Below the pieces are notes generated by a model. That model ran no database searches and was not told the DNA's origin. It saw nothing but the letters and a program-made list of their open reading frames with translations. From NCBI GenBank assembly GCA_963743305.1, contig CAVUPH010000026.1, positions 38,472 to 102,471 on the forward strand: a stretch of 64,000 bases of DNA, given 5' to 3'. Each line of letters starts with the position of its first letter. Position 1 is the first letter of the stretch. Below are positions 25,429 through 28,186 of this stretch, piece by piece. The stretch is from an uncultured delta proteobacterium (GTDB lineage Bacteria; Desulfobacterota; RBG-13-43-22). The translations under genes were made by a program, and so were the position numbers.

Positions 25429-28186
25429 ATGAAATTAGACTTAAAAGGAAAAATGGAGAAACAAGGCCTAACCAGACGGGATTTTTTAAAATTCTGTAGT
25501 GTTATGGCGGCTACGCTCGGCCTGCCGGCCGGGAGCGAAAAGGCCATTGCCCAGGCCCTGGAAGCCGGTCCAAGGCCTCCCATTATCTGGCTGGAGTTCC
25601 AGAGCTGTACCGCGGATTCCGAGTCTTTTCTACGGGAGCCTACCCTGATCAATCTCTTGTTTGATTCCCTTTCCCTGGACTACCACGAAAGATTGATGGT
25701 TCCCTCCGGAGCCCTGGCTGAAAAATCGAAACAAGACACGATCAGAAACTATGCCGGCCAGTATATCTGCGTAGTGGAGGGGTCCATTCCGACCGGAAAC
25801 GGCGGTGTCTATGCCATGGTTGGCGGAAGAACAGCCCTGTCCATTGCCCAGGAGGCGTGTGGTCAGGCGCTGGCCACGATCGCCGTCGGCAACTGCGCCT
25901 GGGATGGCGGGATCGCCGCAGCCGCCCCGAACCCCACCGGGGCGATGGGCGTCAAGGACGCCCTTCCCGGACTCAGCCCTCTCATCAACCTGCCGGGCTG
26001 TCCCATGAACGTCTATAATCTGACGGCGACGATCATTTATTATCTTACGAATAACCAATGGCCGCTCCTCGACAGTCTGGGCCGGCCCACGTTTGCCTAC
26101 GGGGAAGGAATTCATGACCGATGCGAACGGAAACAGCACTTTGAAGATAATGAATTTGTGCTGGCCTGGGGTGACCCGGGACATCGCCAGGGCTGGTGTC
26201 TGTTCAAGATGGGGTGTAAGGGACCCAGCACCAAACACAATTGCCCCACAGTCAGATGGAACAGCGGTACCAATTGGCCGGTAGGCGCCGGTCACGGTTG
26301 CATCGGCTGCGCGTCCCCCAAATTTTGGGACCAGCTCTCCCCTTTTTATAGCCCTCTGCCGGAATATGCGAACCAGATCTTTTTACCTTTGATAGCCAGA
26401 GAATCCTCAGGATCCCCGCTTCACCCCAGCGCGGTCCAACCCCAACCGCAGCCCAAGCCCCAGCTCCAGCTCCCGCCCCAGCGGATTGTCATTGATCCGA
26501 TCACCCGGATTGAAGGGCACCTGCGCCTGGAGGCCCAGATTGAAAACAATCGGGTGGCCGAAGCCTGGAGTTCGGCCATGATGTTTCGCGGCCTGGAAAT
26601 CATACTCAAGGGGCGCGATCCCCGGGACGCCTGGATCTATACGCAGCGCATCTGCGGGGTCTGCACTACAGTCCACTCCCTCTGCTCCGTGCGAGCGGTT
26701 GAAAACGCCCTGGGGATCACCATCCCGGATAATGCCCGGCTTTTGCGCAGCCTCCTGGAAGGCGCCCAGTTCATCCAGGATCATGTGGTTCACTTCTATC
26801 ATCTGCATGCCCTGGACTGGGTGGATATCGTCAGCGCCCTGAAAGCGGATGCTGCAGCCGCCAGCACCCTTCAGAAGTCCATATCCGACTGGCCCAACTC
26901 CAGCCCGGCCTACTTCCAGGCCGTGAAAAGCCGCCTTTCCACCTTGGTCAACAGCGGCCAACTGGGATTATTCGCCAACGGCTACTGGGGGCATCCGGCC
27001 TACAAACTTACCCCCGAAGTCAACCTTATCGCCATGGCCCATTACCTGGAGGCCCTCGACTGGCAGCGGGAGTTTATCAAGTTCCAGGCGGTCCTGGGTG
27101 GGAAAAATCCCCATCCCCAGACCTACCTGGTGGGCGGCATGGCCATTCCGATGGACCCCTCCAGTTCGAAGGCCATCAATGCGGGGACAATTTCCCAACT
27201 GAAGACCCTGTCCGCCCAGGCCCTGGATTTTGTGTCCCGGGTCTATATACCGGACCTGCGAATCATCGCCTCTTTTTACAAGGATTGGGCCGCCCTCGGC
27301 GCCGGACATGGAAATTACCTGGCCTATGGGGACTGGCCGACCAAGAGCGGAGTTCCCTATGCCTGGGGGGATCTCTGGCTCCCCCGGGGGATTGTCCTGA
27401 ACAAGAATCTGGCCGCCCCGACCTCAGATCCTGGACCAGACCAAAATCGGCGAACAGGTGACCCGCTCCTGGTATAACGGGACCAGCCCCCTTCACCCCT
27501 CGACAGGGGAAACCCAGCCCAACTATACCGGCCCGACCCCGCCATTCGAGTACCTCGATATAGACCAGAAATACTCCTGGCTCAAGACGCCGCGCTATAA
27601 CGACCTGCCCATGGAAGTAGGTCCCCTGTCCCGTATGCTGGTGGCTTATGCCGCCGGACACACTCAGGTTCGGCAGGAAGTGGACAAGCTCCTGACCGCA
27701 TTGAGTCTTGGACCCCAGGCGTTATTTTCCACCCTGGGCCGCGTAGCCGCCCGCGGCATCGAAACCCTCCTCATCGCCCGGCAAATGTCTCTGTGGCTCA
27801 ATGAGCTGGAGGCCAACCTGAACAGCGACATTTTGACGGTTCATGACGGAACCAAGTGGGATCCGGCCACCTGGCCGGCGGAATGTCAGGGTTGGGGAGC
27901 CACCGAAGCCCCCCGCGGAGCCCTGGGGCACTGGATCCGCATAAAAAACCGACAAATTGAAAACTATCAGGCCGTGGTGGCCACTACCTGGAACGGTTCT
28001 CCCCGGGATAGCCAGGGTCAGCGAGGCATCTTTGAAGAAGCCCTCCTCAATACCCCGGTAGCCGATCCGGCCCGGCCCCTCGAAATCCTGCGCACCATTC
28101 ACTCCTTTGATCCCTGTATGGCCTGCGCGGTCCACGTTTTCGATCCTAAGGGGAAGGAGATCACGAAGGTCGCCGCCGGGCATTAA
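25429..28186 (+). CDS. Group 1 [NiFe]-hydrogenase with small and large subunits fused (1-bp frameshift near 27421)
   Basis: Tat motif TRRDFLK. Small-subunit motifs CTADSES, GNCA, PGCP, HDRC, CLFKMGCKGP and CIGC. Pro/Gln linker. Large-subunit DPITRIEGH, L1 RICGVCTTVH, L2 DPCMACAVH plus a cleavable tail. Confidence 0.85.

Follow-up and report, generated by a model that had tools for sequence, protein, structure and literature searches.

A candidate natural fusion of the small and large subunits in a Tat-exported group 1 [NiFe]-hydrogenase of an uncultured bacterium

In the maturation of group 1 [NiFe]-hydrogenases, as set out in two accounts (PMC9418501, PMC4273604), the large subunit receives its metal centre and is trimmed on its own, and then docks with the small subunit and exits by means of the twin-arginine translocation (Tat) signal of the latter. 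A locus of an uncultured delta proteobacterium (GTDB lineage Desulfobacterota, RBG-13-43-22; genome of 4.9 Mb in 43 contigs) raises the question of whether the two subunits are, in nature, also made as one chain. The window, that is, the whole stretch of DNA analysed here, comprises 64,000 nucleotides (nt) of contig CAVUPH010000026.1 in assembly GCA_963743305.1 (positions 38,472 to 102,471 of the forward strand), and a preliminary description of its letters had proposed that positions 25429 to 28186 encode such a single-chain enzyme. The joint best explanation of the observations, and one that we regard as reasonably probable, is a real and young in-frame fusion of the two subunit genes of a group 1 [NiFe]-hydrogenase that is Tat-exported, has no membrane anchor and would act as a single chain.

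One reading frame through both subunits

The first open reading frame (ORF) of the fused gene (25429..27477, plus strand, 682 codons) starts with an ATG at 25429, 6 nt downstream of a Shine-Dalgarno-like AGGAGGG (25416..25422, plus strand). According to the Pfam and NCBIfam profiles, this ORF encodes, in this order, a Tat signal, the whole of a small subunit, a bridge of 42 residues and half of a large subunit, and the other half of the latter continues one base out of frame through 28186, in a second ORF (27458..28186, plus strand, frame +1; PF00374 profile positions 290-508). The single frame from the Tat signal through the small subunit into the large one, as described earlier, is thus borne out, and so are the linker string and its coordinates. 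On reading the window DNA, we found zero stop codons between the small- and large-subunit domains and, in frame upstream of RIVIDP, neither a Shine-Dalgarno-like purine run nor an ATG or GTG, again in agreement with the preliminary description; the sole in-frame start candidate ahead of the large domain is a TTG at 26389-26391 that lacks a ribosome-binding site. The rule that a group 1 enzyme consists of two separate polypeptides does not describe this frame, which is free of stops from 25429 to the start of the large subunit. When base 27421 is dropped, the reading becomes continuous over 918 codons, close to the length that had been predicted, and the join then agrees with the relatives; those at about 95% identity do not have that base.

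The Tat signal peptide (25429..25557, plus strand, residues 1-43) carries the motif TRRDFLK and is probably cleaved after AQA. It matches TIGR01409 at residues 14-32 (27.8 bits, cut-off 16.7), and in the alignment to solved structures the mature small-subunit chains of Desulfovibrio vulgaris Miyazaki begin at query residue 47. The Fe-S domain that follows (25558..26352, plus strand, residues 44-308) is covered by PF01058 at residues 60-204 and PF14720 at residues 224-307 and, together with the signal, by TIGR00391 at residues 5-307 (372.5 bits, cut-off 179.5). Given that query residues 7-308 align to residues 14-316 of the 317-residue precursor 1h2a_S (314 bits), the small domain is complete and has no C-terminal membrane anchor. 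The ligand residues of the Fe-S clusters in the small subunit are established for enzymes of this type, and the positions checked against 1h2a_S are conserved, those of the medial and distal clusters included, apart from the proximal-cluster motif C-T-A-D (25606..25617, plus strand), in which, compared with the classic C-x-G-C, the second cysteine is replaced by aspartate. Across 80 related loci, this second position is occupied by cysteine in 51 and by another residue in 29 (asparagine in 17 and aspartate in 12), so that a sizeable clade of group 1 has a non-cysteine residue there and the replacement is typical of the clade. The final small-subunit codons, ..PLPEY (26353..26367, plus strand), occupy the place at which the relatives read ..PLPDD, ..ALTDD or ..ALPGD and then stop.

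The large subunit begins at residue 351, and positions 1-275 of the PF00374 profile match residues 387-662; the best solved match of this part is 3myr_B (417 bits, query residues 351-662 to residues 3-311). The first part of its core (26479..27420, plus strand, frame 1) includes the N-terminal Ni-Fe ligand motif RICGVCTTVH (26647..26676, plus strand), which is intact in both the DNA and the translation. The second part (27422..28135, plus strand, frame 2), which corresponds to profile positions 290-508, is closed by the likewise intact C-terminal ligand motif DPCMACAVH (28109..28135, plus strand). The C-terminal tail of large subunits is trimmed by a maturation protease, and the 16 residues past the motif histidine that, with the stop codon, end the gene (28136..28186, plus strand) are the expected substrate of such a protease. 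A gene for a maturation endopeptidase of the HyaD/HybD type follows directly (28238..28744, plus strand; PF01750 and TIGR00140, the latter at 154.1 bits, where the cut-off is 151.8), and HypD is encoded in the same genome. The scores against the NCBIfam equivalogs of the Hya, Hyb and NiFeSe types all remain under their cut-offs, and the genes of the window include no cytochrome b or HybA-like gene adjoining the locus. By its signal, Fe-S domains, ligand motifs, tail and protease gene, the predicted enzyme is an anchorless, Tat-exported [NiFe]-hydrogenase of group 1. The predicted fold of the first-ORF segment (664 amino acids (aa), 26-row alignment) has a mean predicted local distance difference test score (pLDDT) of 52.5 and a predicted template modelling score (pTM) of 0.44, with its truncated large part unfolded, and is uninformative.

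Independent support for the junction comes from three groundwater metagenomes (X1, X2 and X3) with Logan contigs at about 95% identity to the window. The first record of X1, a contig of 12,583 nt, covers 25400-28220; 137 letters differ from the window and 16 are gaps, and X2 and X3 agree with it. In all three, the junction is without an indel (none at 26353-26400) and stop-less as in the window. The six indel rows show 15 nt, or five codons, missing at 26424-26441 and a single letter missing at 27421, which leaves none of the 16 gap letters unexplained; the 15-nt gap is in frame and lies inside the Pro/Gln stretch of the bridge. The substitutions listed at 26351, 26352, 26368, 26395, 26404 and 26406 create no stop codon. 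Among the 40 of 143 differences listed, then, a second strain appears to hold the same fusion, uninterrupted over about 913 codons. The approximately 200-nt contigs from a coal metagenome (X5) end on either side of the junction and so do not cover it, and a search of the metagenome contigs of the Joint Genome Institute for the junction pattern gave 0 matches. In our judgement, the comparison of the strains makes it very likely that the fusion exists in the DNA of the organism.

Origin of the junction and of the bridge

The genus comprises four genomes and, besides the window genome, only one of these, G001, has an orthologue in a genus-wide DNA search, with 89% amino-acid identity to the window in the small and the large subunit alike. 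In G001, the subunits are encoded by two genes: the 313-aa small subunit ends in ..FYNPLPDD-TGA, and the spacer carries AGGAG and then the ATG that opens the large subunit, MHQVFMPFIANGSSESQPTPTPTPQPKRIVIDP (MHQVFMPFIANGSS..RIVIDP). Two members of the family, G004 and G005, likewise have two genes, the spacers of which measure about 50 and about 330 nt. In the codon alignment, the window codons ..CCG GAA TAT correspond to ..CCG GAC GAT of G001, and GCG AAC CAG ATC to ATG CAT CAA GTC, so that about 40 nt of G001, comprising stop codon, spacer and ribosome-binding site, have no equivalent in the window. The fusion point, GCG (26368..26370, plus strand), is located at the position of the large-subunit ATG of the relatives, and the same codon is ATG in G001, ACG in X1-3 and GCG in the window. 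From this alignment, the polarity is clear, the unfused state being kept in the close relatives G001, G004 and G005, and the in-frame join would be explained by a single deletion of suitable length. In a two-gene ancestor, such a deletion of about 40 nt would have taken the small-subunit stop, the spacer and the ribosome-binding site, so that the final small-subunit codon came to be followed directly by the first one of the large subunit. The stepwise decay of the start codon from ATG to ACG to GCG could then have followed because the old start was no longer used, and the large domain would from then on have been made only within the long chain. We also considered a one-base slip after the out-of-frame ATG at 26366 and rejected it, given that the alignment with G001, G004 and G005 and the ACG in X1-3 favor a deletion; under deletion and ATG decay, the 'tATGc' at 26366 is apparently coincidental.

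In the G001 large-subunit gene, a TGA takes the place of the second cysteine codon of RICGVCTT (RICGV*TT; L003 about 2255-2257, minus strand, on G001:C22). Given the many single-base errors there, this TGA is most simply read as an assembly error or as the mark of a pseudogene; selenocysteine at this ligand position would, to our knowledge, be unprecedented.

The bridge (26368..26478, plus strand) consists of ANQIFLPLIA.. and a Pro/Gln-rich stretch. Its sequence, ANQIFLPLIARESSGS...PPQ, shares homology with the extension found at the N-terminus of stand-alone large subunits that start with MPDIFLPLV.. or MHQVFMPFIA... The nearest of these, 69-74% identical and mostly from Chloroflexi-labelled metagenome-assembled genomes, open with M-P-[DE]-I-F-L-P-[LI]-V and continue with a Pro-rich stretch, the length of which varies. 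Classic large subunits start just ahead of xVIDPxTRIEGH. In the 115 stand-alone large subunits from the 120 best database matches, at least 15 residues precede DPxTRIEGH in 95, and an [FY][LIMV]P motif is found in the extension of 82. Because of this homology to the stand-alone large-subunit extension of its own clade, the bridge is not a new linker and not a translated spacer either; by sequence comparison, it is an N-terminal arm that belongs to the large subunit itself. The earlier view of the Pro/Gln linker accordingly stands in one part, in that the segment is coding and no read-through spacer, and falls in another, in that it is no novel linker: it existed before the fusion, and the true spacer was deleted. 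The preliminary description had named closest homologs in two genes, with this segment non-coding, as evidence against a fusion; the relatives do have two genes, yet the segment is coding in them, as the large-subunit extension.

This kind of extension is widespread among the large subunits compared here (proteins P0004-P0120 and the loci L003, L005, L006 and L029): it combines a conserved motif, [IV]-[FY]-[LM]-P-[LIF]-[IV], seen in 82 of 115, with a Pro/Thr/Ser-rich stretch that varies greatly in length. At the four loci examined, the extension co-occurs with small subunits that have no C-terminal anchor. Two further large subunits, P0229 and P0178, carry 94 and about 230 extra residues, respectively, ahead of xVIDPxTRIEGH, apparently extracellular repeat-like domains with a Pro-rich stretch.

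The extra base at 27421 and the competing explanations

The extra, frame-shifting base (27421..27421, plus strand) is missing from the contigs of X1, X2 and X3 and is a gap in the blastn alignment to G001; because none of these has it, the frameshift is private to the window assembly. Without it, the window reads ..NKNLAAPPQILDQ.., in agreement with relatives, e.g., ..SAPPQPLDQ... Comparison of the window with a syntenic 36.7-kb contig of G001 uncovered similar lesions in other genes. The selD-like gene (37277-38273, minus strand) has one extra base near 37932, compared with an intact ORF of 362 codons in G001, so that its AIRS N-terminal domain (37902-38273) and AIRS_C domain (37277-38017) are in different frames. 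The GyrI-like small-molecule-binding gene (12545-13191, minus strand) is spread over three frames by extra bases near 12846 and 13049, the G001 ORF of 236 codons being intact. Together with 27421, these cases suggest that the window assembly has, in every 10-15 kb, about one indel that breaks a gene. The G001 assembly, for its part, has many single-base deletions, several of them in short homopolymers, that split ORFs intact in the window. Downstream of the protease gene, the same comparison gives no blastn counterpart in G001 for a region of about 8 kb (28757-36722), the syntenic interval in G001 (G001:C22:19712-21343) spanning about 1.6 kb; the unmatched region contains a DUF169 gene (28912..29664, plus strand; PF02596, 150 bits), on the same strand as the hydrogenase, and a gene of the Ldh_2 family.

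The ratio of non-synonymous to synonymous substitution rates (dN/dS) between the window and G001 is 0.15 in the small domain, 0.14 in the large core before the frameshift and 0.17 after it, and 0.53 in the bridge. Because the ratio does not change across 27421 and single extra bases disrupt other genes of the window as well, we consider it likely that the extra base is an assembly error; otherwise, it would be, at most, a very recent private mutation. A programmed frameshift, which was also considered, was rejected because the base is absent from the strains at about 95% identity and from G001. Between the window and X1-3, the small-domain codons differ by 17 synonymous and 11 non-synonymous changes among the 40 of 143 differences listed, a split that amounts to a ratio near 0.2, given roughly threefold more non-synonymous sites. 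A small subunit is useless without its large subunit, and the conservation of the small subunit, along with a large domain that has no ribosome-binding site or start of its own, therefore supports a fused product. In view of the intact ligand motifs, the purifying selection, the adjacent protease gene and HypD, function as a single chain seems to us the best reading, with somewhat better than even chances. The precursor of about 918 residues would fold as two tethered domains, the pre-existing large-subunit extension of 30-40 residues, with its IFLPL-type motif and Pro-rich stretch, having become a flexible tether; at about 40 residues, the bridge is by our estimate long enough for any span within such a heterodimer. 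The large domain would receive its Ni-Fe(CN)2CO centre from the Hyp proteins and be trimmed at the C-terminus by the adjacent HyaD-type protease, whereupon the domains would dock intramolecularly and the whole chain would be exported via its own Tat signal.

How rare such fused forms are was examined in genomes and in protein databases. In a locus survey of contigs from one genome per species, 75 of the best 80 related loci had both subunit motifs, and none of the 75 has an uninterrupted frame that leads from the small into the large subunit; an open junction is accordingly no chance feature of the family. At 50 of these loci, the two are in the same frame and exactly one stop apart, at four, two stops apart, and at the remaining 21, in different frames. 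Small subunits at most of the same-frame loci end in a long C-terminal tail; in the classic membrane-bound enzymes, such a tail holds the anchor helix. Read-through at anchored loci would be expected to put the large subunit behind that helix, and anchor topology may be the reason why fusion is unseen there yet tolerated in the anchorless clade. One apparent second fused pair (G000:C19:58941-60572; L009 2439-4793), recorded as an 'open frame' of 792 aa, was rejected because a TAA, an AGGAGG and an ATG lie between the subunits; these are ordinary genes for 297 aa and 479 aa, and the 'open frame' entries of relatives are alike. Among the best 120 matches in a search of 5.8 billion protein clusters, with lengths of 375-1194, a range that includes the fused form of about 913-918 aa, four have both domains (P0001, P0002, P0003 and P0007), all of them singleton clusters. 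We rejected them as fused homologues because they show Arg-rich, out-of-frame stretches where homologues are conserved, and the five junction-spanning fragments examined (P0233, P0230, P0153, P0260 and P0264) were rejected on account of the same kind of stretches. A HMMER search of 1.84 billion representatives gave no clean two-domain match in the 150 best. The full-length fused homologues for which a search had been proposed did not appear, no clean one being present among either the best 120 or the best 150 matches. Nor is a natural small-large [NiFe] fusion described in the full-text literature searched, which did not extend to subscription journals and supplementary files and so leaves absence unproven.

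That neither the 75 loci nor the 150 best database matches include a comparable fusion counts against the reading of the locus as a functional single-chain enzyme and would fit fusions being usually disfavoured, and several further points have to be set on the same side. In the window assembly itself, the frame is interrupted at 27421, and a real inactivating mutation may be present there. The fused state is confined to one shallow lineage, with two strains about 5% apart; X1-X3 carry one identical variant and therefore amount to one independent second strain; and, with 40 of the 143 differences between this strain and the window listed, a nonsense change is possible in the remainder. Post-fusion selection on the large domain rests on three codons among these 40 differences. 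Because the genome has other small/large hydrogenase pairs, on contigs C14 and C19, the fused hydrogenase could decay at no cost. The strain of the window itself was in no public sequencing run, the highest proportion of sampled words that any of them shared being 0.24, and no public RNA run was found that holds the stretch.

Most of these points would fit a dead-end fusion, in which the deletion crippled the hydrogenase, the other enzymes cover its function, and the 27421 frameshift is the first lesion of a beginning decay. The frameshift in the assembly, the shallow lineage, the pairs on C14 and C19 and the lack of fusion at all 75 loci, although 50 of them are just one stop codon away from it, all favor such a course of events, which we nevertheless hold to be unlikely: dN/dS after the frameshift is not above that before it, the strain at about 95% identity lacks the frameshift and has an in-frame bridge, the small-domain differences between the fused strains are mostly synonymous (17 versus 11), the ligand motifs are all intact, and the similar single extra bases in other genes of the window point to an assembly error. 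It is, on balance, even less probable that two subunits are still produced, by internal initiation, e.g., at TTG 26389, or by proteolysis of the Pro/Gln-rich bridge, and assemble into an ordinary heterodimer. The in-frame TTG at 26389-26391 and the fast evolution of the bridge (dN/dS of 0.53), which tolerates a five-codon indel as an exposed, cleavable stretch might, are compatible with this possibility; against it, the TTG is not preceded by a Shine-Dalgarno-like sequence, of which both the fused gene and the G001 large-subunit gene have clear versions, the ancestral ATG is gone in both strains, and without translation through the bridge there is no obvious initiation of the large domain.

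An assembly or sequencing artefact at the junction, with two ordinary genes in the organism itself, would be in line with the single-base indel problems elsewhere in the assembly and with the fused proteins among the best 120 matches, four singleton clusters with out-of-frame, Arg-rich stretches, which the junction-spanning representatives share. However, the difference from the two-gene relative consists of a deletion of about 40 nt and base changes, not of a 1-nt slip, three separately assembled metagenomes repeat the junction without an indel, and the former start codon differs stepwise between the strains (ATG, ACG, GCG), so that this explanation appears highly improbable. The interpretation originally proposed is supported in part. 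The in-frame junction in three metagenomes and the coding bridge support its core, a natural in-frame fusion, and the shallowness of the lineage, the two genes of G001 and the interruption of the frame in this assembly qualify it, as does the fact that a single polypeptide is deduced here.

Relation to known hydrogenases and significance

One close counterpart is the periplasmic [NiFe]-hydrogenase of D. vulgaris Miyazaki F (1h2a, 1h2r), which resembles the enzyme described here in the Tat signal, the lack of a C-terminal anchor and the medial and distal ligands, and the large part of which matches that of the window at 306 bits. It differs in being made from two genes as two chains, as opposed to the one frame, the large-subunit extension and the proximal Cys to Asp replacement of the window. 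The membrane-bound [NiFe]-hydrogenase of Allochromatium vinosum (3myr), the best solved match of the large part, is, unlike the window enzyme, a heterodimer from separate genes. The two-gene relatives G001, G004 and G005 and the Chloroflexi-labelled P0004-P0012 share the anchorless ..FYxxLxDD end of the small subunit and the large-subunit start M-x-x-[IV]-[FY]-[LM]-P.., with its Pro-rich stretch, and G001 has a HyaD gene downstream, as does the window; what sets these relatives apart is that they keep the stop, the spacer, the ribosome-binding site and the ATG between the genes.

Fusions that involve hydrogenase subunits are not without precedent. In the archaeal HydA-HyhS hybrids, natural fusions with a [NiFe] small-subunit domain for which activity of the protein was shown (PMC11216029), the catalytic partner is of the [FeFe] type and the enzyme a cytosolic one of group 3, whereas in the window the small subunit is joined to its own [NiFe] large subunit in a Tat-exported enzyme of group 1. 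The hupS and hupL genes of Candidatus Thiomargarita nelsonii 'may be fused', in the words of their authors; in that report (PMC4853749), these genes are incomplete and broken by a mobile element and frameshifts, with no intact single-chain gene. The engineered fusion of the subunits of a heterodimeric periplasmic [FeFe]-hydrogenase (PMC12933642) embodies the same idea of tethering as the window gene and differs from it in being man-made, of the [FeFe] type and dependent on a different maturation pathway.

Placed among these systems, the fused gene represents a variant form of a familiar enzyme rather than a system of a new kind and is confined to one shallow lineage, which limits the reach of the finding; the single chain is predicted from the DNA. 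The locus is nonetheless informative on the constraints under which hydrogenase subunits evolve: 50 of 75 related loci are one stop away from fusion and none is fused, and the fusion arose in an anchorless clade with a flexible N-terminal arm. That an uncultured groundwater lineage has a group 1 [NiFe]-hydrogenase that works as one Tat-exported chain, and that the N-terminal extension of the large subunit made the fusion viable, is a proposition to which we would give an even chance. If it is true, tethering of the Fe-S subunit to the catalytic subunit prior to maturation would be compatible with cofactor insertion by the Hyp proteins, C-terminal proteolysis and Tat export, and an enzyme that is naturally tethered from translation onward would test how strict the order of maturation is. 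Such an enzyme would also offer a naturally selected tether for one-gene engineering and would give one-gene [NiFe]-hydrogenases their first natural template.

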